A program made the translations under genes and the position numbers. Below the pieces are notes generated by a model. That model was given only the letters and a program-made list of their open reading frames with translations, ran no database searches and had not been told where the DNA came from. A DNA stretch of 59,747 bases, the filler included, from Sphacelaria rigidula (Eukaryota): assembly GCA_964200075.2 (NCBI GenBank). It is 8 parts of 8 records of this genome, joined end to end, with 100 filler letters (N's around TTAATTAATTAA, not from the genome) between each part and the next. Parts side by side here need not be neighbours in the genome. Positions count along the whole stretch, not along the records: positions 29,926 to 37,306 come from CAXNAA020015179.1; 7 more parts are not named here. The stretch is one strand, 5' to 3'. Shown here in pieces: positions 11,794 through 54,166 of this stretch. How positions within the stretch are numbered: the stretch's first letter is position 1; the number at the start of each line of letters is the position of its first letter.

Positions 11794-12051
11794 CAGTGAT
11801 GCTACGGTAGGGGTGCAGAAATATTTCCTGAGGTTCGAATTGTTAGGAGCCCTTTATCTCATGCAAAACACGACTGATGAAATATGTGAAAGTACGCCAG
11901 GATTATTTTTCTAATTTGCTGGAGATATCCCGAATAAATTTGCAAACGGGGATGTCCTGATCCATATTTTCGTGCATCTATAGAATCGTTAGGAGCCCCT
12001 GAACTAGACATAATTTCCCGAAAAAAGTGCACCCCTACCGTAGCATTGCTC
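11794..12051. mobile_element. MITE family B (GAGCAATGCTACGGTAGGGGTGCA TIR), copy 1, TSD ATTG
   Basis: Has TIRs and a 4-bp TSD (ATTG, 11790-11793 and 12052-12055). Inserted in a family-G repeat, in the opposite orientation to copies 2 and 3. Confidence 0.85.
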
Positions 12052-12618
12052 ATTGCCTTGGTCGTCTGACCATTGACCACGCATTCCTTTCGAGACGGGG
12101 AACCGTTCCTACTCCTAAAAGAGACACCTCCAACATTTCAGTGCTCATTACCATTTTTCCATACGTTACACAAAAACAATTCACATATATGTATGTACGA
12201 AGTATATATCTTATCCGCGTCCTGTTTCGCCGTCTGGGGCAATCATCTATCTCCTAGCATATAGCCATCGCTTTTTCCCGTACTATTTAATTCATCAAAC
12301 GATTCCCCGCCACCTGCGTTCACGTCCCGCATTTCCCCGTCTAGCACGTCCCGTTCCTCCTTTTAAGTTCACCTTCTGCCACTATATATGACTTCTGCTC
12401 TCTATTTCTTTGCCACAGAGGGCAATTCTGTGCATCTACTTCCTCTTCCTCTTGACTACTGGTATATCTTCTTCATCTTTATGGCACGTTCAGTTCCCCA
12501 CCCGACTGCTGGTGTCGGGGGGGGGGCGCCTACCGTGGCATCAGTCCTGCATTCCGCGCCTTTTGCTCTAGTTCCCTTCATCGAGTGCTGCCGCATTCGT
12601 GTAAATATGTGCACGTGA

Positions 12619-12880
12619 GAGCAATGCTACGGTAGGGGTGCACTTTTTGCGCAAAGTCTTGTCTGGTTCAGGGGCTCCTAACAATTCTAGATGCACTAGA
12701 ACATGGGTCAGGGCATCCCCGTTTGTTTGAAAATTTGTTCGGGATATGTCTCGCACATTGGAATAGTAATCCTGACGCACTCTCACATATTTCATCAGTC
12801 GTGTTTTGGGTGAGACAAAGGACTCCTAACAACTCTAACCTCGGAAACTATATCTGTGCACTCCTACCGTTGCATTCCTC
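12619..12880. mobile_element. MITE family B, copy 2, TSD GTGA
   Basis: GAG...CTC termini; GTGA at 12615-12618 and 12881-12884. Confidence 0.9.
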
Positions 12881-12957
12881 GTGAATCGATGCCGTTACTG
12901 CGACTCAACTCGCACAAGCGGATCGGTTAACTGCGCCAAGATTAATCCCTGAGTCGA

Positions 12958-13218
12958 GAGCAATGCTACGGTAGGGGTGCACTTTTTGCGCGAAATCTTG
13001 TCTGGTTCAGGGGCTCCTAAGTATTCTAGACGCACAAGAACATGGGTCAGGGCACCCCCGTTTACAAATTCATTTGGGACATCCCTACAATAGTGTGTTG
13101 GAATAGTAATCATGGCGTACCCTCACATACTTCATAAGTCGTGTTTTGGGTGAGATAAAAGGCTCCTAACAGTTCAAACCTCAAAATATATTTGTGCACC
13201 CCTACCGTAGCATCCCTC
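12958..13218. mobile_element. MITE family B, copy 3, TSD TCGA
   Basis: GAG...CTC termini; TCGA at 12954-12957 and 13219-13222. Confidence 0.9.
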
Positions 13219-13584: not shown

Positions 13585-14027
13585 AACAGCCGATCATCAG
13601 AATTGAGGATGAAGCTTTTCATTGAGGATGAGAACCCGGAGGATGAAAATCTTCGTATCCACACCAAATCTTCGAAATAGGGTTCCATTCCTTCACCTAC
13701 TGGTAGCTACCGACAGGTACTACACGCCATGCAAATTTGGATTTCGATAACCGAAATTTTGGGTCCTAGGTAAAAAAAACATGTTGGAGAATTTCGGCCA
13801 TCCGATCGGATCACCTAAATTCCCCAAATTTTTTTCTTCATCTAGGACCCCGACATTTCGGTTTGTAAAATTCACATTTGTAGGGCGTGTAGCAGTTGTC
13901 AAAGGCTATCAATAGGTGAAAGAATGAAACCCTATTTCGAAGATTTGGTGTGGATACGAAGATTTTAATCCTCTGGGTTCTCATCCTTACTAAAAGGCTC
14001 CATCCTCAAATTCGATGATCGGCTGTC
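13585..14027. mobile_element. Fold-back MITE family A, copy 2
   Basis: Palindromic about ATCCGATCGGAT; flanked by AAAA on both sides. Confidence 0.9.
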
Positions 14028-14065: not shown

Positions 14066-14405
14066 CCGGTCCGGCGAAAACCCGGCGTGCTCCGCCCCGG
14101 TTTGGTAGGGATGCAAGGTCATTGGTCATGTGACTATGGCATGCAAGATCATGCCCCCCCCACCTCTCACTCGAAACCGCCGTCCAATAACGAGATCGTT
14201 AGTACGCTTCGGGTCGAACAATCTTGGTAGGATGGATCTTACTCTTCATACGACTCACCGAACACATCACGGTGCTTCGCGCTTGGTGATTGATTGTGAG
14301 CCTGATCCGGCGAAAACACGGGGTGCTCTGCCCCGGCTTAATAGGGATGCGAGGTCAATTGTCTCACGACAACGGCATGCAAGGTCATGAGTACCCCCCC
14401 CCCCT
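14066..14405. repeat. Two copies of repeat family G (14066-14161, 14268-14405)
   Basis: Same consensus as 7483-7556 and 9846-9970. Confidence 0.8.
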
Positions 14406-14788
14406 TCCCCAGCAAAGGGATGTGTGGTCAATGGGCAAATTACTGAGGGAAGCAACGCATGAGCACGCGCCTCCCCCCCAACCTGCAGTAGTACATGTCG
14501 AGGACCAAATTCCACGAGGTATTTTCCCTTTTTTTTTGTGAAAAAATACATAGGAAATATGTATCTGTAGAGCTGTCTATTAGGGGCACGCCCTCCGACA
14601 CATGACGAAGGTGCTAAAGTGAGCATAATTGAAATGAAATCCATACGAATTGACCCATAGGTAGATATATCATTAGAAAAATATAACCCACAAAAAGCAA
14701 ATGGCCGCTATATAAGTCACTGATCCTACCCAAGTAGGTGGGAGAGTAGCAACCCTCACTACGGGTCGAACTCCCGCTCGTGGGAGAC

Positions 14789-14863
14789 GGAGGGGGTGTA
14801 CTCATGATCATGCCTGCCATAGTCATCAGACCATTGACCTCGCATCCCTACAAAGCCGGGACG
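14789..14863. repeat. Repeat family G, opposite orientation, at the contig end
   Basis: GGGGGTGTACTCATGATCATGCCTGCCATAGTCATCAGACCATTGACCTCGCATCCCTAC. Confidence 0.85.
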
Positions 14864-22444: not shown

Positions 22445-22921
22445 GGAACAAACTGCACCGAAGTCGCAACATCTGTGAAAGCTAGAGAGTTTGATTTTAT
22501 GGATTGCATCCACACAATTCAAACGGCTCTCGAAACCTGAGGGAAGAGGTCTTCCCTGTCCCCCAGCCAGGCATTGATGAACGAGGAAATGCTTTTTACA
22601 GGCGGATACAACACAATGGGGGCTCGGAGACGTTTCTTCCCATCAATATCCGTGTTTTCCAACCTGCAAAGCGTTCCATGCACATTGTTTTCTAATTCGA
22701 ACGGTAACTTGTCGATTCCTGTTTCGTTCTTCAAGGACTGCGTGAAGCCAATCCCAGAAACGTTTGGTACTGCTGTTCGATAGTATCTTGGGATGTTTAA
22801 CTGGACCCGAAGCGGCCACCTTCCCTCAGGTTTCGAGAGCCGTTTGAATTGTGTGGATGCAATCCATAAAATCAAACTCTCTAGCTTTCACAGATGTTGC
22901 GACTTCGGTGCAGTTTGTTCC
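22445..22921. repeat. Perfect 102-bp inverted duplication (22445-22546 / 22820-22921) at the contig start
   Basis: Arms are exact reverse complements separated by a 273-bp spacer. Confidence 0.9.
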
Positions 22922-25133
22922 CGTGACCACCTCTGAGCAGACGAGAGTACGCGCGGTAGAGCAACGAAAGGTAGCTATAATCCGGTTTGCCTGCCGTACT
23001 GCCGACAGCGTCGCGTGAAAGCCACAAGACCCTTGCTGTCGGCGGTTGATGGCGTGGGTCTCGAATGCAACGACATGCGGTTGATCGTAGAGCACTCTCG
23101 TGTCTCCTCCTAACTTGTAATAATCCATGACGTCCTGACATCGAAATAATTATTACTCATGGGAAGCTACTCGTACTGTACCGAGCTGTCCACGCGACCA
23201 GCATGTGCTGCAGATTGCCTATACGCCACGCGAGCAACAGTTAGGTCACCACCATGGGTATCGTTTTTCACTCCGCATGCCAAAAAGGTCTCTACAAGTG
23301 TTTAACCTCTCATACACCCCCCTCAACTGACGCGTGGCACGCTCTGCTCGGGCACCCGGTTGGGGGAGGTCGGCGAAAACCAACGATGAATAACATCCCT
23401 TGAGTTCAAATTGGACCTATCTGTTATTGCCGCAGCCCCGCTCTCGCTGGCATGTGTGTGACAGAGAACAGTAGTAGCGGTAACGGGAACATTCCCCTAT
23501 TTTTCAACGACGTGTTTTTCAGCGCAGAGAGGCGCGCCTTGTCAAAAAAGAGAGGCAGAGAGAAATCGATTATCGCGTTGGCGACAGGCAAGAAGAGACA
23601 ACGGAATCTTTCCGCACGTCGATGTTCTGGCACATGAAAAAATGGCAAATCGAACATGTGCCGAGACAGAATCTGTTTAATTAAATTAGCGGGCGAAGCC
23701 CACATCACGAGCCAAATCTCCCACACGAAGAGTAGGGTAACCCAAAGTGAGTTGACAGAAGCGCGACTATGGTCAAGTGTTCAAACTCGGCACTGGCCCA
23801 ACATTGAAGACCCGCCCACGATCAGACGGGGGACTAAAACATGGGACACGTCCTGTTTCACTACTGTACAGCAGCAAAAACACTCAAGCCTCTCTCATGT
23901 GCTGAAGCTTCCACTGTCTGCTCTGTTGTAGTGTGTTTACGCATTGCGAAGACGGTTTGGATTGTATGAGCTGCGATAATATTGTCGTTGTATTTGTCTC
24001 TCCAGAAAACAATATCAGTCGGCACGCAATGCTAGCTGCACACTGTTGAAAGCTTCATGGGTTTGTTGACTGTTTCGTCTTCGGTAAGACGAACAACGTG
24101 CTGTCCGTTGCTGCGACACCCCTGCTGGTGCCGTGCGTTGGGCGCCTGTACTGTACCATACTGTTGTCTTGTGTTCGGTGTACTATACTGTATTATCTAT
24201 GATACTGTATTATCTATGATACTGTATAGGTCTGAAACGCGCTACGAGTTAGACCGCACAACACCTGGTTTTAGAGTACTCCCCTGGTGCACGAACACGA
24301 ACACTTGATTTTAGTGTACTCCCCTGGCGATTCTCAAGCGAAATGGAGCGATCTAATTGGTAAGTTATGAAGCGATACGTACCGCTCCAAATTCAGTCTG
24401 CCGTTGAAACATTTGGCGCATGCTGGTATAATAACATTGATAATGCCAGTTTCTCAAGCGATTGGTAATCGCCGAGCAAGGACACACAAAGGACGCGGGC
24501 GAGGAGCTTCCTCTCTGTCGTTGCTTCTCTCTCTGGTGATATCGTCATCGACACGCGTGTACACCGCATTCATTAGGGGCACCTAGCCACAGCTGCTTGA
24601 ATGCGCGGGCATTTGGGGGGGAAGATGGCTTCGCTCAGACGCGAGTGTTTCGCGTCCCCCCTGCAAAAGAGAAATGCCACTTCAACCTCATTTTTTGTTT
24701 GAACCCCATTTTCTAGGATCCACTGTTGTAAAATGTTGCCCACGTTGGGAGCTTGGTGGGCTGGCATCATGGTTTCCCCTGGCTCTCATACTGAAAGACC
24801 TCAGCCAAAACATTGGCTACCCCCATCACTACGATAATTGGCGTCGAAAACGGACTTTGTTTTGCGTGGTTAGTAGATCTTAGTGTTGCCTGGTGTTGTG
24901 TTTATGTCGTGGTCTGGCCACGAGGTGATACGGGCATCGCTCTCGAGGAATGAGTACCATCGGGGGTTGCAATGTGCAATCAGTCGACTAAGAGGACGAT
25001 TGCAGTCGAATGGAGAAACACTCCAGCTAGTGGCACATAGACCCTGGAGTCCGAACCAGCACTGCATCGAAAGGCAAAACATAGATTCACTTTCACGTGA
25101 AGAGAAGTGCTCTTGACTTGCTGGCAAGCGAGA

Positions 25134-25702: not shown

Positions 25703-28700
25703 CTAAGTAGTGTACGAGCCTATGAGGAGCAAGTTCAGGGCATCACTGCGCGACAGGGGGGCATGCGGGCGAGACGGCGTACTTGATGTCTTGGCTGGGT
25801 TGTAGATGTGCCAAAGTGCGTGAAACCCATCCAGTTGCAGGGGCGTAAATCTTTCCAGGACTCTGCTCTCCGGAAGCCACTCTGACGTCGCTCCCTCCTG
25901 AGTGAGTTCTTCCTTGGTACTCCCAACCTGCACTTCCTTTCCCTGATTTGCACTCGCGGCGGTTCACTAGGGTAAGGAGGTGGGGTGTGAAGTCAGGCGA
26001 AGACGATATTTTGAAGTCCGGTCCTCATGCAAACTGGGCGAACTCGTCGGCAATGGAGTGTCTCAAGTGCAGCGGCCGTACATGGTTCGGTTTGACGTCA
26101 GACGGGGCTACTGTGCGAGTACGTAGTTTTCGTCCTTGCATCACTACCTCGAGACTATGTCCGACCATCAGTACCTTTTTCACCGCCCAAGGTTCCGTAC
26201 ACCCGTCATGCGGCAGCTTCCTGACCCTGCCATCTCGGTACGTAGAGCTTTCACTCTCCCTCACCGTTACCAGATCCCCTTCCGTGACCGGCACGCCTGC
26301 TGATGGTCTCGAGATGGCTGCATTGTCATTTTCCCGCGACGCTGCTTTAGCCCCTCTGCCTTTTGTCCAGCGCCATCCTTACCTCGCGGAGGTTCTGCTT
26401 GCGCTGTTCGACGAGTGCATCTAGTCCCTTGCTCGGTTCTTCCTCTTGTGAGCGGGGCACGAGCGAGTCTAGCGATGTGCGCGGTTTGCGGCCGAAAAGC
26501 AGCTCGAAAGAGGATATGTTAGAGGGGAGCGATGTATCAGGCAATGTGCGCTTGATCCAGAGAGCAGGTGAGACAGACTCGTCCCACCTCTGGGGCCTAA
26601 GTCTACATAGTTCCGACAGCATATCTGACAGCTATCCTCCAAGTCTTTCAACAGTTGGTTGACCGCATGGATGATCTGACGGCCCGAAAGCGATGTCCGC
26701 CTTCAATTACCTGCACAGCTGCGTAGCGACATCGGCCCCGAACTCTTTGCCCCTGTCGCAGCGGACCATTTGTAGGACACTAAAAGTTAGGCATAACTCT
26801 GTCAGAATTCGTGCGATCTCGTCCGCTTCCTTTGATGGCAGAGGAGATCCGAACGGGAATCGGGATGCGCGGTCAAGTACCAGCAGAATGCACTTGTTGT
26901 GTGAGTGGGACATCACATCAATGATTAGCAAGTCGATTTCCAACTCGGCCCAGGGGTGTAGAGTGCGCCCCGGTCCCATCGCCATTTGACGGCTGCTTGC
27001 CTTCTTGCGCCGTCTACAGTTGCACGACAGCACATACTGCCTGGTGTCACGCGTCATAGTAGGCCAATGCAAGCGATCGCGCATCAGAGCAAGGGTGGCA
27101 CCTAGTCCGACATACCCATAGAACGTATGCACGAGTGCCAACAGGTCAGCTAGCAGCTCCTTGTCGTCGGCTTCTCGGTACCACAGTATACCTTGCTCGT
27201 CTACTTTTCAGTCTGATCGTCTTGCACTCACCGTTTCTGGCGTTTTTCTGCCTGCAAGGTCTGACTGCACCTGTTTGAGAGAGAGATCCCCTTGTTGGTG
27301 GTGCCGGAGATCGCTTTACGTTGGTGAGTATCCGTAGTGCACGGTCGATCGCCGCTGTGTCCGCCAGGTCCGGATCTGCTCATCTCGTTGGCATCTCTCC
27401 CCCGGCTAGGAACACTTCGCCCACTTTTACCAGCTCACCTGTTTTCGGCGGAACGATCGGTGTCGGCACCTGTAGCGGTACTTCAATCGGCGTTGGCTCT
27501 GCGGGTGAATTCGGGGTGACAACTTGGGGAGTGAAGGGCAGGGGTGTTGTATACGCAGCATCGGGGGGTTGCAAGAGTGCTGATGGTCTGCGAGTACGAG
27601 TCGAACGGCGCACAGGTTGATTATCGGTGATGACTGCGCACTCTGAGAAAGGGGGTAACCTCAGGGTGGCGATGTCAGGTGGGTTGTTGGAGTTTTACGG
27701 TGAATGCACACTTTTGTCTGCGCTCACTGACGTACCCGCCTCTTTTGGTTGTAGTTCCGGCAGTCCTTGTTCCGCGAGTTGTGGTCGTTGTGGGCCTACG
27801 AACTCTTTCGGTGAGCCCGACGTCAAATCGTCCGGAAAAGAACCATCAATGTCGGGCTGTGTCTCACTCGCGTGTGGGAGTTGTGACAACGCATCTGGCA
27901 GCACATGCCGGGAGCCTTCTCACCAATGTGTCGATGCCATACTCCATTAGCCGTAGGGCCCACCTGTACAGCTTGGGGCAGAGATCGCGGCTACGGAACA
28001 ACCATATGAGTGCCGAACAGTCAGTGATCAACGTGAACCTTCTCCAGCTAAGTACAGTCTATAGTGCTGGACATCCCACAAGACAGATATGCACTCTCGT
28101 GCTGTGGGTGCTCTGCGCGAGTCGTTGCGAGAGAATCGGTGGCTGGCTGCCGAATGATACGATGCGTGTTTCGCACCTCACCGGCTGCAGCAGCACCGCC
28201 TCAGCACCCACCTCGCCTGTGTCTGTCTGCAGTACAAACAACTTGTTGGGGTTGGGGAAGGCTAGTACCTTCGGCGAGGACAACCTGCTTCGAGGGCTTG
28301 AAACGCCTCTTCCTGCGCGGTATCCCACGGTATGGACAGCTTTCGCGCTCGCTTGGATGCGAAATCTTTGTTGCGGAGCAGGTCGGTTAGTGGGGCGGCT
28401 ACTAGGCTGTATCTCTCAACAAACTGGCGCAATACCCTGTGAGGCCGAGGAAAGTACGTGGCTCCTCGACGGTGGATGTTCCAGGCATTCCGGCGATGGC
28501 GACGAGATTGGATGGCGCGGGATGAAGGCCACTGCTATTTACCAGCATGCCCAGAAACTCTTGCGACGCCGATGCAAAAATGCACTTGGCGAAGTTCACC
28601 GAGAATCCCACGACCAACAAGCGTTGTAACACGATCACGAGTAGAGCTAGATGCTCGTCCCAGGATGTGGTCGCGATAAAGATATCGTCAAGCCAGGTGA

Positions 28701-29720
28701 ACACCCCATCCAACTGTCCTACCGTACCTTTTACCCGACGGGTGAACGCGGCGGGCAGAACTGTTAGCCCAAACCCTGCTCGTGTGAACTCGTATAGGAG
28801 GCCACCTGCCTCTCGGGACGCCGTTTTGAAAAGGTCTTTCTCAGCGATCTCGATTTGGTGAAAACCGGAGGCAAGGTCGAGTTGGATGAAGTAACGCTTA
28901 CCCTTGAGACCATCGAAAATGAATTTCATATCCCCGAGACCCCCGCTGTCCGGCACTAAGAGTTTGCTCAGTTCACGCCAATCAATGCACAAGCGCAAGG
29001 TGCCGTCTTTCCATTTCACGCATAGGCATTGGGCTGCCCACAGGGAGGTCGAGGGTCGGATGATCCCTCGAGCATGAAGCTAGTGTATCTCTTCGCGGAT
29101 CATGTGACGCTGCTCAGGGAAAAATCGGCGTTGCTTAGCTGCGAATGGCGTACATGACTCGTTAGGTGAGGAGAAGTTCTAGCTCACCGTTGATGCAGGC
29201 GGGAACCCGCTTGGGGTCTGTGAGGAACAGTGCAGCTTCGGTAAAGCTCAGCAGCGTGTCTATCAGCTCTCTCTTTTCCGCTCCTCCATGCTGGCACCAT
29301 GTTGGCGTCCTTCACGTTGACCTTGGGGCTTGGTTGGGTCGAGCAACTACTGTCTGGACGTGAGGCGCGGGGTGGGGGGTACACGGGGGGGGGTCTATCG
29401 TAGATGGATGTGGGTCAAACAGTGAGTGAAACCTGGCGGGGTCGCGTACGTTCAGTACTATCATACGCGCGACAGTGCCAGTAGGCTTCACTGCTACCTG
29501 CTCCTTACTTCTATGTACAAGTTTGCAGTATACCGGCGACCCCGGCTGCCACCACGATATTCCCTTCGCAATCCCCGCTTCTGCCCCTTCGTCCAGATCG
29601 AACTTTACCTGGGGGAGTACAAGTACAAACTGCCTATCCTGTGGTTGAGGCCCGATCGCGGTTGTTTCTTTGGTGATTCGACGTGTTTTCATGTTGTGCC
29701 CAAAATAGTGCTGCGTTGAT
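25703..29720 (-). mobile_element. Degenerate Ty3/Gypsy pol (RT-RNase H-integrase, chromo-like tail)
   Basis: RT: LRLCIDWRELS...LDLASGFHQI...FGL...WLDD. RNase H: FVLQTD. Integrase: H..G...CxC zinc-binding region, VRCDRGKEF and WDE.VSPALW..RT...FELLFGRKP. Many stops and frameshifts. Confidence 0.95.
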
Positions 29721-29925: not shown

Positions 29926-29942
29926 CGTTTCATTGATGAACA

Positions 29943-30430
29943 TTACTTTATAGAATCTTCTGTTTTCTGAGATAGGGAGGAGCAGGTCGCGCAGAACGTA
30001 TGGTGTGCAACCCTGCAGTGCGTGCATCGGTACCTGCGGGAATGGGGACAGAGAATATATGTCGGCGGCGAATGGATCGACAGTCTCGCGAGCAATGCCT
30101 TCGTCGATGGGTGTGTATCTCGGTGCCCGCCCTCCGACTAGATACTCCATGTGCGCTAATTTCACTCTCACCTGACGTGTAGGGTGGGTTTGCACGATTC
30201 GCACACTTTGCCCTCGCGACTACCCGCTGCTGGGCGGTCCCGGCCCTCCTCACCCTCGCCGTCGGCCTCCCCACCGGATGCGTCGTTCACATCTCCCTCG
30301 CCGCCGCCACCCACGAGTTTTAAACGAGTTTCTTGTCGTTTATCGCGTTTCATTTTTTCCTCCACGTTTCGCTGAAAGACTTGAAGGTCCCTCTTTGTGT
30401 CATCTTCGAACGGCGGTGAGGGCAATATCT
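29943..30430 (-). CDS. Spliced ORF with a C-terminal Cys/His finger (exons 30430-30172, 30033-29943); possibly a pseudogene
   Basis: A phase-consistent GT-AG join gives VCESCKPTLHVR-YRCTHCRVAHHTFCATC, after a charged and Gly/Glu-rich segment. Confidence 0.5.
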
Positions 30431-31407
30431 CTGGTATGTCAAGTATGAACTAAGATATAAAATACGGGACGGCCGGCAGCAAGTATCTGCCTTGTCTCTG
30501 GAGTGCAAATGTTTGTGGGCGGTGGTGTTTTACACTCCTCGACCAGTACTACCGGGAAATATACAGCTGACTTCCGCGCCTGAGCAGCGAGGCCGGTCAC
30601 CGGTTACCTCGCGACAGCGAATATATGTCTCAACTTTCTTAGGATAAAGTCAACTACCGACGGGGAGTAACGCACCAGCTCCAAGGGCCGTGGAAGTCTT
30701 CCCTTGTAGACCGCCTCGAATTCCTTTATGGCTTAGCCTTCCTGTTCTTTAGCCGGCAGGCTTTCTCTTGTCTCTGATATCGTCTTGTCTACGGACGATA
30801 TATAGTCCCACACGAACAGCTGGAAATCTTCCAACCCGTACCTACCGTTTATCATTTTTTGCACGCCGCTGTTCGCAGAAACCGGAATCGAAAACATCAA
30901 ACGTCGCACCACATTCTGTGACAGGTCGACTAGTGTGCAGTGATACTAACGTACACGGCGGCGCATTCTCACGTGGTCTCGATATGGACAGAGCGCTTTA
31001 CCTCGGGCGGCGGCCGGGCTACGGATTAACGGCACACGAATTTTTGTTCAGCGGCCAATCTCGAAACCTTGGACCCAAGCGAATCTGAGATGTGGGCTAG
31101 GCTCCTCTCTGTGGGGTGATGCAAAGTGTCCAAGACGTGTGTTGGCGATTTTATCTGTCTGGGGATCAAAAAGTGGCTCAAATGTACTAGAAGTGAACAA
31201 TCCGTGGGCCAAAAATCTGTTTGCGATAACATCCGGCCTGAATACTATGTATTGTACCCGTCATCTCGAGAAACCAAAATGTCATCGACGGTGCCACCGG
31301 ATGATGGAAGATCAAAGTGGGTGTTTTCCGTCGTGCTCAACATTGACTCGTGCTGGCTGGGCTTCGATACTCCGTCGGTACCCTTTGCGTTTGTGTCTAT
31401 TGTATGT

Positions 31408-31461
31408 CGGTCGCCCCGGTGGCTCAGGTGGTAACCTCGAAACCTTCTGACGGTTGAGCAG
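31408..31461 (+). mobile_element. tRNA-derived SINE head (family S2)
   Basis: GGTCGCCCCGGTGGCTCAGGTGGTAACCTCG (A-box TGGCTCAGNTGG); same as 37407-37468 and 38291-38378 on the minus strand. Confidence 0.65.
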
Positions 31462-31812
31462 CTGATCAAAAAAATGAAGACTCCCGAATTGAAAAAAAAA
31501 CACGCGGGAGCGGTCATGATGAAGGGTCCCGGTGGAAATAAGGATCCACCTATATAGGTGGATATACTTTTTGCGCTCAAAACCGGTCAAGGACTTTCCT
31601 GTACTGTTGTCTATGCACATGTCCTACATTCACATGGTCATAAAAAGAGGCGTGTGACATTATGGCGAAAGAATGATTCTGAATCTCGAACATGGCATGG
31701 TCCAACGCAGTCTACATGCGGTTTTATAGGCGACATGGACCCGCGGAACACTTCTGAGGGCAAAATATATTGCTCAACTGGGTTTCTCACCGTGATGCCC
31801 CCGGAAGACCCT

Positions 31813-32538
31813 ATTCGTGAGATTCAGAGGGCAGTTTCAGATTCGGAGTGTATGCTCTAGCGTTCCCAACAAGATACTTTTGTTCTTCGCTTTTTTTGCT
31901 TGAGCACATGTGCACAAGCACCGCAGGTAAGGTGCCGTACCGAGCGTACCCCCGGTATTTACCGGTGTATCACATACCGTGGTATGCGTAGGTATCGTAT
32001 GTATGAGTTTTGAAAATACCGGATTGGGCCGGTACGGTACGTATTGAAATCTCGAAATACCCTGGTATCATAGGTATCGTAGGTAACACAATATTTGTGA
32101 GATTCAGAGCGTAGTTTCAGATTCAGAAGGGATGCTCTAGCGTTCCTAACAGGCAACTTATTTTCCTTATTTTTGCTTGAGCACACGTGCTGTGCATGCA
32201 GCTACCGTACAGTACCCCATTCGAGGATTCCGGCAGTCTGGCTGGTGAGATACCGCACGAAGCATTTTTACGCCTGGGGGTCATTTCGGAACTGAAACTG
32301 TTGCAGGCACTAATCGGTGTTTCCTGACAAAGGGGATCTTTCGTTGCAATGGACTGACTATGTAGTTGCGATCAAGTGATGTGTCAAAATGATCGTGTAG
32401 GTGACAGCTGTCATTGAAGCCACCGCTTCACAAGCTGAGCGCATTACTCCTCGAACTGTGGCGATGTCAAAATCGACGGGAAAGTCGATTGCTTCGGGTC
32501 TCACTCTGAATCTGAAACAACCCTCTGATTCTCACGAA
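31813..32538. repeat. Composite repeat: ~95-bp direct repeat (31813-31912, 32094-32190) with an inverted ~38-bp copy of its start (32500-32538)
   Basis: The GTGAGATTCAGAG..AGTTTCAGATTC motif occurs twice direct and once inverted. Confidence 0.6.
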
Positions 32539-33440
32539 TGTTGTGTTTCGGGTGTTATGTCAGGGGCGACGGGGGACCGCGAGAGACAGGGATCCTGTTC
32601 ACCAAAACAAAACCCTCGCGTTCCTCGACAGATACGCAAAGACGTACGAGCAAAAGATGCCGCGCCAGAATGTTGTATACTTCTACATGAGAAACAAACA
32701 GGTGGGTAAATGTAGGTAGCGCTTGCACAGCCATTGTTTCGGTCGCGCTTTTGGACTGATATGTGTGGGTGGGTGGGTGGGTGGGTGGGTGGGGGGCTCT
32801 CGCGGCATCAATCACGGTAAACGGCGTCTTATTTTAGTTTGGTTTGTTCGTTTTTTACCAACACATTTGAGGAACCAGTCGGTAAATATCGTTTCGATTT
32901 GTGTCTTTGTCGGGCTAGAGGTACGGGCCTGGAACACTCCAATCCCCGACGGTGTTCATAGTCTTCGATTCCAATTCCAATTACTGGACCATTGACTACC
33001 CCTTCGCGCATCTAACACGCGATTTCGGAAATTGAGCGCAGTTTTTATGGAGGAAAAACGCTGTGAACTGCCACAAGCATCGAAATGTTTTCGAAGTAGA
33101 ATTACAAATACACTCTCCGGCCGTAATGTGTGGCGTCGCTCATCATGGGAGAAAACGCCGGTCATTTGTAAAATCCCGTGTGTTTCAGGGGATTCTGTAA
33201 TACAAGAGCAGTGTAAAATACAGGAAGCACCTGAGGATTAACTTGTTCTGTGCAAGTACAGGATGCCGCAAATTGCAGACGGACTATTGTTCAGGAGGAG
33301 CCACGCCACACGGCACAATCGGAGAAGGCAGATTCTTTTGTGTATTACGGAAATGTAGTGATGCTTCCGAAGGTTCCCAAGGTTCAACCACAGTAAAACA
33401 TCCATTCCCAATTTTCAAAATCGCGTGCTGTCTGATTCAG

Positions 33441-33633
33441 TTCAACTGTCGGATCCATCCCCCCTGCGAATAGCGTCGCAGAAAGAGGCAATGCGGTGGA
33501 TGACAGTATAGATATACGCGCCGGAGCCCAGGACGCAGCTCATCGCGCTTGTGTGCTAGTTGTTTGGCTTCATGCGCACGCTGATGTTGCGCTACCAACT
33601 TCATGCGCGCGCTCATTTTCCCAACCATATAGC
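33441..33633 (+). CDS. Possible upstream exon of the transposase-like gene
   Basis: Open frame ...ACVLVVWLHAHADVALPTS...PYS, phase-compatible with the next exon via |gtaact. Boundaries uncertain. Confidence 0.4.
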
Positions 33634-33713
33634 GTAACTATCCGGCGTTGCGGGCTCAATTTCCTGCACACGATCCCTCGAAACACGCGACCACCTCACA
33701 TCCCTGATGACAG

Positions 33714-33962
33714 GAGGTGTACGATGCGTTCGTGGAGAATATGCGTAGTACGGGAGGGGGGGTAGCCGCAAGTCTTCGCTATTTTTACACCACGATGCGC
33801 AAGGACCGACCCCACTACAAGGGCAAGGTCGGCGGCACATTCATGAAGTGTAACGCGTGCATTCTGTACCATGACACCCTTAATGGGAGTTCTGGTGTGA
33901 GGGTCACCGCTGACCCCGGCAAGATGGAGGAGGTCGCTATGGAGCAGAAGGCGCACTTGCAT
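33714..33962 (+). CDS. Transposase-like gene, exon with CxxC...H region
   Basis: EVYDAFVENM...SLRYFYTTMRK...FMKCNAC...KAHLH; gacag| and |gtgagt; 83 codons. Confidence 0.75.
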
Positions 33963-34637
33963 GTGAGTCGTCTTTTCGTCGAAATTGTCTGCAGCTCGTG
34001 ATGTCACCGGAAAACGAGGATACGCAATATGTGAGACTACGCCACGAATAGCATCCAAAGCAGCCGCAGGTGTATCGAATTAGTCAAGGGGAGGATATTT
34101 CCCGACTACTATATTTCCTCAGCTCGTACCTGCAGCGACCCGTCGATATCAATGTTTCGATGCGAGTACGCATCGAAATTCTGTCGAGTAAACCTCAATC
34201 TCCCTATGCGACCTCGGCTCAATGCGTCACGGTATCGCAAATCGCGAGTGCCACTCCACTCAAGTTCCCCAGGTCCATGCGGTCGAGTAGCGTTTCCCAG
34301 TTACACGTTGTCTTGGCGGAAACCCTCTCCGCCCGAGCCGCGTATCAACAGCCGACCGTTTTTCTTATCATTTACCTAGCTTAATTTTAGTTCGTTATTT
34401 CGGATTGGTTTCGTTTCTCGTGTGTATTTTGATCTGAATTTATGAGCTATGTTTATGTTTTTAATATCTGTGGTTACTTCACGCCTCCTGAGCGGGTGTT
34501 TCTGTGCTTCCTTCAATCCCGAGTTCGTCTTCCATGGGACCACGGCTTGAGGCACGTGGTTTGTCCCAATGATAGATACAACGCTCGAGATATTCCTCAT
34601 CAATCTTACGATGCGGACCTCCCCTCGACCGTAACAG

Positions 34638-34801
34638 TTCGTGGCTCTAGACCGTCAGCGCCTGGCTTTTATCAGTCAGGCTGCCATTCGAGTGAACGCT
34701 AATCAGGAGCCGTTGAAGTTCGTGTCTCTACAAGCCGATGCAGCAGCTCAAACGGTGTTCGCTCTACCTATGTCCTCTCCAGTGACGCACGGCACAGACA
34801 A
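34638..34801 (+). CDS. Transposase-like gene, exon with the first predicted catalytic Asp
   Basis: FVALDRQRL...EPLKFVSLQADAAAQTVFALP; taacag| and |gtgagt; phases match both neighbours. Absent from the ORF track. Confidence 0.72.
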
Positions 34802-34992
34802 GTGAGTACAAACGACACATGACCGTGCATTCGACGGTGTCCCCCTTTGGTTAGCGCCTCCAACGCTCGCGTACACCCACGGTCATGACGCCGGTGAATA
34901 CTCGCTCGCGCGTGCGTCGACGTCGATATAAAGTGTATCGTGTCTGATACGACTCCGCGGTTATGCACGATGCGCGATGTGGCGACTGACAG

Positions 34993-35081
34993 GGGGTATG
35001 CCGAACGCCAAAAAGTCATGGCAGTTCTCGTGGAGGGGCAGTTCGTGGAGTTCTTCCTGGCACCTCAGACCGTCGGAGGCG
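34993..35081 (+). CDS. Transposase-like gene exon
   Basis: GYAERQKVMAVLVEGQFVEFFLAPQTVGG; gacag| and |gtgagt. Confidence 0.72.
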
Positions 35082-35384
35082 GTGAGTTCGAGCACGGTGC
35101 TCGTGTCATGCAGTCGTCGAATTATACCGTGAGGCGATCGCCGGCATGATTCGTTCGCATCTCGAGTTTCTTATAGCGCAGTATCGCCGCCCACCCAATT
35201 CGACGTAAGTAACTGTTTGTCTGCCGTAGTCCATTCGTTCGATACTTCTACCACCGAGGCGCGTGGTTCGGTACAGCACACTGGCCCACAGTCCACCACA
35301 GCATTTCTTCCACAAACCTAACGAACATCGAACACTGTCCATCCCGCCATCCCGCCATCACCTTGCCGTGTACTTGTTTCGCAG

Positions 35385-35634
35385 GCAGCAATCTTATATG
35401 CACCTCCATTCACCGGGCACTGACGCGACTGTTCGACACGCACTGCAGCGCCGGCACCCCAGCGTACATCGACGAACTACACGCCCAATTCGACAACTGC
35501 GTGGGCGAAAACAAGAACCACGTCGTCTTAACGTACCTGGGTTCTCTGATTGCTCGAGGCATCATCGGACGGGTTGAGGTCAATTTCATGATGGTTGGAC
35601 ATACCCATATCATGATCAACCAGGTGTTGTCGAG
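35385..35634 (+). CDS. Transposase-like gene, core exon (DUF7869/Sola-like DDD domain)
   Basis: GSNLICTSIHRAL...LHAQFDNCVGENKNHVVLTYLGSLIARGIIGRVEVNFMMVGHTHIMINQVLSR. Confidence 0.85.
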
Positions 35635-37087
35635 GTGTGTACAAAGAAGTGTGCGTCGAAATTGAAGATCGGTATCGAATTGAAGAACATATCGTGATCA
35701 GAACAGTCGATCATGCGTACGGACGTGGAAGACCGAGCAGCCGACATTGATCGACTCGAATCAAAATCTAGAATAGATAATCGATTGTTTACACCCCCCG
35801 GCCTGCTCGTGGCGGGGCTATTTTCTTTTTCTTTTCGACTGTCTTGGAGTGCCCTCTTACGGTTTGGGTTGGGTTCTTATTTGTTATTTGTGTGTTTATT
35901 TCTCGAGAGGCTCAAAAGAAGCAATGAGAGCCCTTTTGCAAGGAACAGCAGGGATGGTATTGGAAAGACGAGCCCACATCTGTGACCACGAGAGGTCGGG
36001 CTAGTACGCGGAAATAATAATAATGACGACAATAATAATAATGATGATAATAATTTACATATTTCGCGTACATTATGGACAAAAGGTATGGAATGGTGAT
36101 GCCGGCTACCCAAAATCCCCGTAATTTCTACGACTGCACTCATTCACCACTACTTCTAATCCCACGACCGGGGAGCAACACCGCACAACCGCACACCACA
36201 CACAACACAACACCTCGCGGCGGACCAGTCTGTGCCTGGACACCGAGTGAAGGTTTACTAGAGTACTGTGCCTGGGGAGGTCTTACGGAGTTGCCAAGTG
36301 GACGAGAGACCCAAATCCCTGCGATGTGTTTGGCGCCAACCCAGACAGTACGCGCGTATGGCACACGCAGGGATGAGTTTTTGCGACACGGCACCGAGAA
36401 CGCGTGCAATCCATATCGTATATGTTTTTCACCGCATAAACTGCGGCTAGACTGTGTTATTGGGGGTGAACGTGGGGGACCTCCGGCAGCGATGCAAATT
36501 TTGAAAAAAAATGCGACTGGATCATCCGGCTGCGATGTATGGCCTCGCTCATCCCAGGGTTAGGCCCCGACCCTAACCGTAACCCTTACCCCAATGAGAT
36601 GGAGGGCTCCTACAAATTCACCCCTAACGTGGGATCACTCAGTAAACCTTTGGAATTTACCGCGGTAATTAACCTTGCTAATTGGGCTGTTAATCGACTG
36701 TAACTCCCAACTTAGGTAAAAATAATCTGGACCGAGACCGTGGTTAGGTTCGTATTCGCAAAACCTCACTCTTCTCTTTTTGAACGAATTCTAAGTCATC
36801 AAATAACAGAATATATGGACGAAATTCCAAACAATATAAAAATTCGAAATAAAATCCCGTAGCACGTCCTGCAAATAATGCTGGTACGCGGGTGGTTTTT
36901 TCCGATGTCAAATTATGTACGGTATCAGTACGAGTCTCGCAGGGGTAAGGAGATATGATTGCACAGTGCATGAGCGTCCACGGATATCTCGATGTCACGA
37001 GTTACTTCGGACATCGAAGGGTCAGTGTGTCGGTGGAAGTATGTTATTGATGACCACTTTTGGTACTTAATTACGATTGTTTACCAG

Positions 37088-37296
37088 GATCGCCGTACAC
37101 TGCAAGGGCTCTTGCCTGTTCACGAGACAACAGAAGGCAGAGTCAGTGCTGCGACACGAGCCTGCCCGTCTACACCACCACTCTCCGCTCCTTGGGCAAC
37201 TTCAAAGGGGCCCTGACAGACGGCGGTCGCGTGTTTCCCATCGTTGGCATAACGTCGCCGCGGTCGTTCGAGATCCGGCCTGCGGGGCCAGCCCAG
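37088..37296 (+). pseudogene. Transposase-like gene, downstream exon with an apparent frameshift; gene truncated by the contig end
   Basis: accag|G-IAVHCKGSCLFTRQQ continues in phase, then shifts frame (~37140-37165) to LRSLGNFKGAL...IVGITSPRSFEI. Confidence 0.6.
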
Positions 37297-37306
37297 GTCA
37301 GCGTTG

Positions 37307-37468: not shown

Positions 37469-37905
37469 TTCATCACACGTGGGCTTTCGTTTTTTATGTG
37501 TTGTTTTCCACAAAAACGTATGCGTCTCATTCAAAAGGGATTATTTTGAAGCGGAAACCCCGAGGAGTTACTTGATTTTAGTGTGAAAACCGAAAAACAA
37601 GAACCCATAATCCATGCGAATCATATGCGCGCATGGAAGACAAAAGCCTCATCACACGTAAAATATATATGACAATGACGTACGTCCTCACGGCTAGCCT
37701 GCGAAAAAGGTAACTCCTGCAAAGCCTCTTCTGGATAAATGAACAAAAGCAGACGCTCATAAAAGGGGGCGCGGGGTATGGTGGGAACCACCACGTAAAA
37801 GGGGGAAATTCCCACAAGTGTCCGTAGAGAAATCACCATCACTTTACTCGTTTTTCGTCTTTATCGTGTTCATTGATTTGTCGGGGTGTCCTTTTTTTTC
37901 AACAG

Positions 37906-37998
37906 GAGCGAGATGAACTAATCGTAACTATGGCTGCCGTGGAAAAGGAAAGAGATTTCTACTTCGACAAGCTGAGAGACATCGAGCTGCTCCTGCAG
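37906..37998 (+). CDS. EB1: Microtubule end-binding protein EB1 (MAPRE family), EBH-domain exon (gene 5'-partial)
   Basis: ERDELIVTMAAVEKERDFYFDKLRDIELLLQ (EKERDFYFxKLRxIE hallmark); aacag| and |gtgcga. Confidence 0.93.
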
Positions 37999-52367: not shown

Positions 52368-52660
52368 GGGGGGGGCGTACTCATTTGTTGCTTGCCTTAG
52401 TCGTTTGACCATTGACCACGCATCCCTTTCGAGACGGAGCCCATACCTGAGATATTCTCACCTGCCCGCTCTCCTGTGCATGTATACGTACCTCGTTCCC
52501 TCATCTTCAGCACGCCTTTTCTCCCATAGGGGGGGAGGGGGGGTGGAGAAAAGGGAAGTGACGGGGGGGGGTGCACTCATGATGTTGCATGCTATATTCA
52601 TAAGGTTGTTGGCCTCGCATCCCTACGAAACCGGGACGGAGCACGCCGGGTTTTCGCCAA
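52368..52660. repeat. Two family-G repeats (subfamily 2 at 52368-52440; subfamily 1 at 52563-52660)
   Basis: GGGGGCGTACTCATTTGTTGCTTGCC...GACCATTGACCACGCATCCC and GGGGTGCACTCATGATG...CTCGCATCCCTACGAAACCGGGACGGAGCACGCCGGG. Confidence 0.8.
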
Positions 52661-53726
52661 CCAGGCTGACGGGAGGGGGGAGGGGAAGAAAATGAAACAT
52701 AAACATGATGGATTGTTGCAAAAGCTACTGTCGCCAAGACATGGAGTCCTGTGCGTGTGTTACTTATTTTTGCGAGATGCTACTGCTCCAAAACATATCC
52801 TCGTTGCCTTGCCAGCGTGATAACTACTGATGGACTAGGCATATAAAAACATGGGTTGGTATGGGAGAAAAGGCGTGCTGAAGATGAGGGAACGAGGTAC
52901 GTATACATGCACAGGAGAGCGGGCAGGTGAGAATATCTCAGGTATGGTCCATCTCTCAATCAAGCGCAAAATACGAAACCGATCAGTGAGTCTCGGGCAA
53001 AAAATGGAATGTAAGGCCGAGAAATGCAATCTTTCTACCCGGAAAGCAAATAAACGAATAAATACGGAACGGTAGGGTATATTTACCTCGCACAATGCAA
53101 CGGGTACGACCTGGCTCCGGGTTGTGTGCCATATGTGCTCCACACCCGCCTTTCAAGCGACGGAACCGAAAAACCACAACTCCCTGAAAAAAAACCCAGA
53201 AAAAGCTCCGCCAGTATGAAACCTATGCCGTTGCTGAAGCGGAGTGGCGAATTCGGCCTGGTGTTTTTATTGGCCTGTTTTTATTTTCGTTCTTGTTGCC
53301 GTTCGAGTTCTTCACGAGGGATCGTTTATGTCACCCAAAGTGTTCAGCACGCGTTTTCGTGTATCCGTCTTGGACACGAAATTCCACCAATGGGGGACGG
53401 ATTTCTTATGGGGGATGGACAAGGTCAAACATTGAACCGAGAAATGCAAACACTATTTCCGGGTATCCCTCCGGACCGCTATGTTTTGAAAGCGGATTGG
53501 TAGTTGCACGTTGGATTGATATCTATCCAAACATCGACCATAATCTCATTTTATTTTGTTTTTCATGTACATGCGTGATTTCAGAACCTTCAGTAGTTTA
53601 CCTGGGCCCCACAACGTCTCGAGCAGATCCGCGGTCGAGTTACGATTAAAAAAACTGAATAAAAAAAAAAGCTGTGTTTATCATTCAAACCAATTGTTAC
53701 ACGGATGCAATGGACGTTTTGCATTT

Positions 53727-54166
53727 GACAGCCGATCATCGAAATCGAGGATGGAGCTTTATATTGAGGATGACAACCCGGAGGATTCAAATCTGCGTAT
53801 CCGCACAAAATCTTCGAAATATGGTACCATTTCTTCACCCACTGGTAGCCATTGACAACTGTTACACACTTCACAAATTTGGATTTCGAAAACCGAAATG
53901 TTGGGGTCCGAGGTGAAGAAGCGGTTTTTGGAGAGCTAGGTGATCCGATCGGATCGCAGAAACTCCCTGAAATTGGTTTTTCACCTAGGATATTTCCGCT
54001 ATATCGAAATCCAAATTTGTGTGACATGTAGTACTTGTCAATAGCTACCAGTAGGTGAAGGAATGGAACCATATTTCGAAGGCTTAGTGTGGATACGAAG
54101 ATTTTAATCGTCCGGGCATTTATTCTCAATGAAAAGCTCCATCCTCAATTTCGATTATCGTCTGTT
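53727..54166. mobile_element. Fold-back MITE family A, copy 3, TSD ATTT
   Basis: Palindromic about GATCCGATCGGATC; ATTT at 53723-53726 and 54167-54170. Confidence 0.9.

Follow-up and report, generated by a model that had tools for sequence, protein, structure and literature searches.

Introduction

A locus in the genome of the brown alga Sphacelaria rigidula raises the question of what an intron-rich gene resembling a DDD-type transposase represents, and whether it belongs to an element that could still move itself or others. The stretch of DNA that was analysed (the window, 59,747 nucleotides of assembly GCA_964200075.2) consists of eight unrelated contigs, each about 7.4 kb, with N spacers between them, and the transposase locus occupies one contig (G000:C15179, window 29926-37306). 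The nearest named proteins are from S. rigidula itself (88-89% identity to the queries) and from Ectocarpus. We are confident that the locus stems from a giant Sola1 cut-and-paste family with a spliced DDD transposase, and the contig itself is very probably an internally deleted, non-autonomous copy of this DNA transposon family, which measures about 23 kb.

Two groups of copies are distinguished: family A comprises close copies in which the introns are also alignable at 84-94% (including the locus at 29926-37306), while subfamily B comprises eight divergent copies alignable to the window at exon positions only.

A spliced gene with a DUF7869 domain

The five segments proposed as exons in the initial annotation, which had been made from the sequence alone (33714-33962, 34638-34801, 34993-35081, 35385-35634 and 37088-37296), have AG and GT ends, join in phases 0, 2, 1 and 2 and give 320 stop-free codons, and the SLQAD, QFDNC, GHTH and CxxC...H motifs that it named were found in the product. 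Its DUF7869 label was borne out by a match of 35385-35634 to PF25273 that clears the curated cut-off (E = 3.3e-17, profile positions 37-112). Other parts of the model had to be revised. The segment 33441-33633, offered as a possible exon, is intronic: a spliced contig joins 32701 to 33714, and inclusion of the segment did not lengthen the alignment to P0156, a full-length Ectocarpus homologue. Addition of 32585-32701 alone raised that alignment to 313 bits, compared with 291 bits. Position 37296 is not a donor, as the exon that begins at 37088 measures 437 nt in 11 of the 16 copies with its end located, and exceeds the contig end at 37306. The stop-free reading frame past about 37142 is the product of a frameshift, the window being short of 4+1 nt near 37142-37153 that are found in 14 of 15 aligned sibling copies. 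The first exon was located in copies L040, L048 and L129, and one further exon lies 3' of the 437-nt exon in other copies; with the corrected exon chain, the transposase gene therefore has eight exons.

Splicing was assessed with contigs from four sequencing runs of one study, presumed to be RNA although none is on record as such, and joints were read among the matches listed (15 of 66). The intron 35082-35384 is skipped in all four runs, 34802-34992 in two, and 33963-34637 and 32702-33713 in one each. The check for RNA junctions proposed with the exon model thus holds for three of the four internal introns, while the joint 35634>37088 was not found among those matches. The spliced contigs differ in sequence from the window copy (one record, for example, has 19 differences in 250 nt) and therefore derive from other copies. 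Subfamily B, wherever covered, keeps AG and GT at the sites homologous to those of the four internal exons, apart from single-copy exceptions, so that the proposed junctions are also conserved between copies. Its match to the window is restricted to exons (35381-35640 in 8/8 copies, 34983-35089 in 7/8, 37075-37304 in 7/8 and 34648-34806 in 3/8). The four introns of the DUF7869 gene are real, three through spliced contigs and all four through the divergent subfamily.

The exon 35385-35634 has at least 85 matches in the genome, split copies included (best 100 candidates scored). Its uncorrected ratio of nonsynonymous to synonymous differences per site (pN/pS), counted without L021, in which the anchor is missing, amounts to 0.16 for the 168 pairs between subfamilies, 0.39 among A copies and 0.21 among B copies, as would be expected if master elements once under selection had left copies that are decaying.

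The transposases of Ac, P, MuDR and CACTA elements are spliced. The introns, which the initial annotation regarded as unusual for a cut-and-paste element, are no surprise, since Ectocarpus transposon gene models with introns are curated routinely (PMC12477816). No literature on introns in Sola elements was found among the matches listed.

Predicted fold of the transposase

The window product was examined exon by exon, and the structure was taken from the Ectocarpus homologue P0005, which is 64% identical over the DUF7869 exon and has 2,008 representatives at E ≤ 0.001. A model of P0005 from a 108-sequence alignment reached a mean predicted local distance difference test (pLDDT) score of 62.6, with the core mostly at 75-98; a single-sequence model was unusable (pLDDT 37.5). 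The RNase H fold expected by the initial annotation was recovered, the P0005 core superposing on the prototype foamy virus (PFV) integrase of the intasome with Z = 12.4 and a root-mean-square deviation of 2.5 (134 residues aligned), and on Mos1 with Z = 11.2 and a deviation of 3.8 (168 residues aligned). Foldseek with the P0005 model ranked enzymes of the PFV integrase and Mos1 type at the top, and a PDB sequence search with the transposase alignment returned nothing under E = 0.9. Three Asp motifs are conserved in the 108-sequence alignment, and, going by the fold of P0005, we take these residues to be the catalytic triad. The model predicts an RNase H-fold DDD enzyme with a Cys/His-rich N-terminus and a C-terminal beta-barrel. 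For the barrel, similarity to Spt5 (Z = 6.8) and to BAH domains (Z = 6.2-6.5) is no stronger than common arrangements tend to give, and neither name was used.

Termini and target sites

A repeat search within the contig found no termini, because the contig is the interior of the element. Collection of copies and alignment of their flanks, as the initial annotation had suggested for its proposed brown-algal DNA transposon, revealed many copies with shared inverted termini. A 3' boundary ending in ...CACAATTTGCTGTT, which lies about 3 kb outside the contig, is shared by 38 of 43 matches. The 5' end, reached via overlapping copies upstream, is the 3' end inverted (75-91% over about 0.7 kb), and AACAG stands at the start of both. 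The terminal inverted repeats are thus about 0.7 kb long, imperfect and of the form AACAG...CTGTT, as pieced together from overlapping copies rather than from one contig. Genome-wide, there are 98 exact occurrences of the terminal 18-mer and 1,264 of the terminal 24-mer with up to three mismatches, compared with zero for the control in each case. The composite element is 23.6 kb long, including copy-specific insertions, and a miniature inverted-repeat transposable element (MITE) is among the nested insertions seen in copies. The termini of subfamily B likewise end in CTGTT, and the genome holds no fewer than three subfamilies and two families of MITEs.

Among the flanks of 115 termini, A is found at -4 in 59% and T at -1 in 63%. 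AWWT is present at 17/115 termini (background 2.0%) and ANNT at 41/115 (background 6.3%), which is a bias and not a strict site. Flank symmetry of family-A termini is best at 4 bp, with a distance of 0.04 versus 0.20-0.54.

Several further observations concern the body and ends of the element. Family-A termini are inserted in other copies (L040:7769-7857, L236, L187 and L135), self-nesting being common. Most one-mismatch termini among the matches listed (100 of the 1,264) start with AACAAC, not AACAGC, and lie near contig ends; they may belong to a larger, younger subfamily or to a non-autonomous derivative. An upstream, inverted second copy of the CxxC exon (68-70%) is found at L049:663-853, on contig C1316, which has copies of families A and B in opposite orientation. 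A motif of 40-90 nt, common to siblings, recurs in direct and inverted orientation around the upstream transposase exon (31800-31850, 32085-32127 and 32502-32552). Short repeats of very high depth are nested in the element at 31408-31456 and about 31915-32090; the loose ends behind 31456 resemble a tRNA T-arm, which suggests the head of a short interspersed element.

The opposite-strand accessory gene

The segment 29965-31035, which did not figure in the initial annotation, matches the 5' region of the element at 85-93%. Two minus-strand CT..AC introns flank 30172-30403, each skipped in all four presumed-RNA runs (among the matches listed). They belong to a multi-exon accessory gene lying head-to-head with the transposase gene, the two start codons being separated by about 0.7 kb. 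One accessory exon has 52 matches in the genome and another 75. On five contigs that carry divergent copies, the gene points away from the transposase, and the head-to-head arrangement is found in three subfamilies, with exons about 40-60% identical. L076:3-909 is distantly related (about 30% identity) to the N-terminal accessory exons, suggesting further subfamilies.

The first exon appears ParB-like from a GNH motif recognised by eye and from an Atlas score of 0.93 for a cluster set in which 11% of the members carry ParB_N (the top matches, at 0.95, are unnamed). Phage ParB-like genes match it weakly (E = 4), and no Pfam, PHROG or PDB match was found. In both A and B, a C4HC3 PHD-like pattern, also seen by eye, is split by a confirmed intron. 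Two later exons are reminiscent of motifs IV and I of the beta class of N4/N6 methyltransferases, with neither DPPY nor FxGxG present. PF01555 (N6_N4_Mtase) had no genome match at E ≤ 1, and exon scans for methyltransferases were blank. A YhdJ-like profile built from nine sequences placed two exons on the expected segments in order, which is not significant (hhalign P = 0.015, probability 3%); its best real score was 2.9 bits versus 1.9 for shuffles, and one accessory exon profile matched the methyltransferase MePCE at only E = 0.49. The only full-length relative of the accessory protein found is P0154, which as a query found none, and none was found in metagenome or viral contigs.

From these patterns, the accessory protein may consist of a ParB-like start, a PHD-like finger and a possible methyltransferase-like end. 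It is conceivable, though doubtful, that it is a ParB-PHD protein whose methyltransferase-like domain has lost the catalytic DPPY-type motif (in all three subfamilies) as well as the S-adenosylmethionine-binding motif (in family A), and that it acts as a catalytically dead reader of DNA and chromatin that protects or targets the giant brown-algal element. If so, the dead reader would be a modified form of the helper, itself methylating, that has been proposed in Ectocarpus. ParB- and PHD-type domains fused to methyltransferases occur in algae, and the methyltransferase domains borne by DIRS1 elements are likely inactive (PMC4738411). The proteins described there belong to other clades and hosts, and the methyltransferase homology of the present protein is not statistically significant.

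Relation to Sola1 elements

The closest published counterpart is Sola1-1_Ec32 of Ectocarpus, an element of 21,549 bp with AACCG-CGGTT termini, a 282-bp repeat, a 4-bp duplication and an opposite-strand gene for a 1,104-aa protein with ParB and methyltransferase domains; giant Sola-1, KDZ and EnSpm elements of Ectocarpus carry nested insertions and pseudogenised transposases (PMC12477816). The Sphacelaria family resembles it in several respects: it is giant (about 23 kb), its termini read AAC.G, its inverted repeat is long and imperfect, its target duplication is probably 4 bp, its accessory gene lies on the opposite strand and encodes a putative ParB-like domain, and it shows both nested insertions and transposases that have become pseudogenes. 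It differs in that the termini read AACAG and the repeat is about 0.7 kb long, that the target ends mostly in T whereas the Ectocarpus target is biased to A, that the accessory protein has a PHD-like finger and no detectable N6_N4_Mtase where the Ectocarpus protein has a reported methyltransferase domain, and that it comprises at least three subfamilies together with two families of MITEs. Orthology with Sola1-1_Ec32 is inferred from this shared anatomy. The Ectocarpus proteins P0005 and P0156 are 52-55% identical to the transposase over the core.

With the Sola1 group as a whole (classification and typical sizes in PMC4455052 and PMC10294476), the family shares a DDD-type core, inverted repeats and a 4-bp AWWT-type target. 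Insect Sola1 elements, with a 630-aa ORF (open reading frame), are 2-3 kb (PMC3845634) and bivalve ones average 5.4 kb (PMC10294476), far smaller than the present family, and the available parts of these papers mention no accessory gene. The exon 35385-35634 matches DUF7869 (PF25273), a Pfam family itself without an assigned function; beyond that entry, the domain is here placed within a transposon that has defined termini, and its fold, as modelled in the homologue, is integrase-like. No literature mentioning DUF7869 and none on Sola transposons in Sphacelaria was found among the papers searched.

Another DDE/D group (Sola2, Sola3 or an unnamed lineage) might merely resemble Sola1, given that Sola1 was compared by description, that no literature on DUF7869 was found and that the fold is common to all DDE/D enzymes. 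We consider this unlikely, as the family is close to Sola1-1_Ec32 in its termini, probable 4-bp duplication, size and accessory gene, while Sola2-1_Ec32 has GGCGG termini, 26-bp repeats and a length of 4.6 kb (PMC12477816), and as an AWWT target is called a hallmark of Sola1 (PMC3845634). It is still less probable, to a degree that makes it hardly credible, that the copies form a domesticated or host gene family that arose from a transposase and was amplified by segmental duplication: host-like introns, spliced contigs and pN/pS below 1 would suit such a family, but sharp identical termini amid unrelated flanks, more than 1,000 terminus matches, stops or frameshifts in most copies and three kinds of lesion in the window copy do not.

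The assignment to a giant Sola1 family with a spliced DDD transposase has to be set against several results that count the other way. It was made from anatomy and published descriptions. The fold belongs to the Ectocarpus homologue P0005, not to the window protein, and Foldseek with P0005 gave no match at E ≤ 0.001 (best 1.9e-3). The length of 23.6 kb is a composite of overlapping copies, and no contig holds both ends of one family-A copy. No duplication pair was found for family A among the 26 termini (of 115) with empty-site homologues. The exons from 33714 through the 437-nt exon are all intact in none of the 21 fetched stretches, and no autonomous copy was seen. The ParB and PHD labels are without a Pfam match, and the RNA status of the four runs, from a single study, is presumed.

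State of the window copy and its relation to the MITEs

The third catalytic position of the window copy is Asn (GHTHIMI-N-Q), compared with Asp in 27 of 30 copies. A frameshift near 32580 sets its frame apart from that of nine sibling copies, in addition to the shortage in the 437-nt exon. An internal deletion of roughly 5.5-8 kb (estimated) took the first exons of both genes, including that of the transposase, together with the shared upstream region. Judged from its sequence, this copy, which the initial annotation put forward as a candidate autonomous element, is dead, with a D-to-N change, two frameshifted exons and a deleted first exon. Across the family, 3 of the 21 fetched stretches are open as far as covered, and most copies have stops or frameshifts. 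A length of 174 nt for one exon in five rows is a loose-anchor artefact and was excluded from the lesion counts.

The nested 414-bp MITE has subfamily B termini and shows exact 4-bp duplications in 18 of the 29 copies with both ends (23 within one mismatch; best 30 of 40 scored), while other duplication lengths tested gave 0-5 copies. The window also contains three MITEs of about 445 bp (280-727, 13585-14027 and 53727-54166), which start with AACAGCCGATC or a one-base variant and have exact 4-bp duplications in two of three cases. Their termini occur 684 times genome-wide with at most one mismatch. They share with families A and B the AACAG end and two TGAGG-type motifs at similar offsets, and on these features are probably Sola1 MITEs of another subfamily, for which no autonomous partner was found. 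The partnership between the transposase copy and the window MITEs proposed in the initial annotation is not supported, the AACAG terminus and TGAGG motifs being common to both but the family-A repeat not; the 414-bp MITE fits subfamily B. A lone subfamily-B-like terminus lies near 24727. That the window copy is itself autonomous and mobilises the window MITEs is next to impossible: four stop-free exons with canonical sites, and MITEs with AACAG ends, TGAGG motifs and exact duplications in two of three, are outweighed by the Asn in place of the third catalytic Asp, the pair of frameshifts, the deleted first exon, spliced contigs that differ from this copy and no match of the family-A terminal pattern in the window.

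Feature coordinates and neighbouring features

Table 1. Features of the transposase locus, in window coordinates
Feature	Position	Strand	Basis
End of nested 414-bp MITE, subfamily-B-type terminus, cut by contig start, within accessory gene	29926..29964	+	84% match to subfamily B terminus
Accessory exon, second half of PHD-like finger (YRCTHC..H..C), truncated by MITE	29965..30033	-	91-93% to element 5' region; intron 30034-30171 skipped in 4/4 runs; PHD label by eye
Accessory exon ending CESC, first half of PHD-like finger, broken in this copy	30172..30403	-	Two skipped introns
Accessory exon; all 5' of it, including the ParB-like exon, deleted here	30676..31035	-	Match to element 5' region; splice contigs
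Unrelated high-depth repeat at internal deletion junction	31036..31238		No match in compared siblings; read depth, loose ends
Family-A element body, close copies 84-94% including introns; 3' terminus about 3 kb past contig end	31239..37306	+	Sibling alignments
Upstream transposase exon, ..FLDRYAKTYEQKMPRQNVVYFYMRNKQ	32564..32701	+	Acceptor inferred, donor shown by GT..AG joint 32701>33714 (1/4 runs); aligns with P0156 220-250; frameshift near 32580
Intronic segment, possible exon of the initial annotation	33441..33633	+	Skipped by spliced contig; no gain against P0156
Transposase exon, CxxC...H motif	33714..33962	+	Splice joints, copies, P0156 alignment
Transposase exon, putative first catalytic Asp (SLQAD)	34638..34801	+	Splice joints, copies, alignment
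Transposase exon	34993..35081	+	Splice joints, divergent copies
Transposase exon, DUF7869, putative second Asp (QFDNC) and third catalytic position	35385..35634	+	Profile match, copies
Intron segment not shared by all close copies: a nested insertion, or lost from the copies without it	35985..36471		Absent in L004, L006, L008, L018
Start of 437-nt transposase exon, frameshift near 37142-37153, ends at contig edge	37088..37306	+	Sibling copies; predicted C-terminal beta-barrel in next exon of other copies

Other contigs of the window hold unrelated features. A reverse transcriptase ORF at 28405-29079 (-) matches PF00078 (E = 6.5e-15) and probably belongs to a long terminal repeat retrotransposon. 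On the contig following the locus, an exon at 37900-37998 (+) carries an EB1-like C-terminal motif (PF03271, E = 2.7e-10) and belongs to a host gene for a microtubule end-binding protein. Further inverted-repeat elements, their termini unlike those above, lie at 11795-13217, 14332-14860, 22445-22921, 52441-52947 and 24680-24727.

Implications

The exons, repeats, termini, target bias, lesions and two-gene layout observed here are consistent with the following history. The ancestral active element would have been about 23 kb long, with AACAG...CTGTT repeats of about 0.7 kb and two spliced genes head-to-head. Its transposase may have bound the repeated TGAGG motifs inside the termini, excised the element and reinserted it by a 4-bp staggered cut at A..T-biased sites, while broken copies, including that in the window, and MITEs would have moved in trans. 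The accessory protein probably bound element DNA and chromatin.

The element resembles a kind recently described in Ectocarpus, so the kind itself is already known. Giant two-gene Sola1 elements would then not be peculiar to Ectocarpus, a second brown alga having a large radiation of them. The Pfam family DUF7869 becomes tied to a transposon with termini and a predicted integrase-like fold, which helps to remove such genes from algal annotations. The accessory protein, rather than the introns, is the part worth following.

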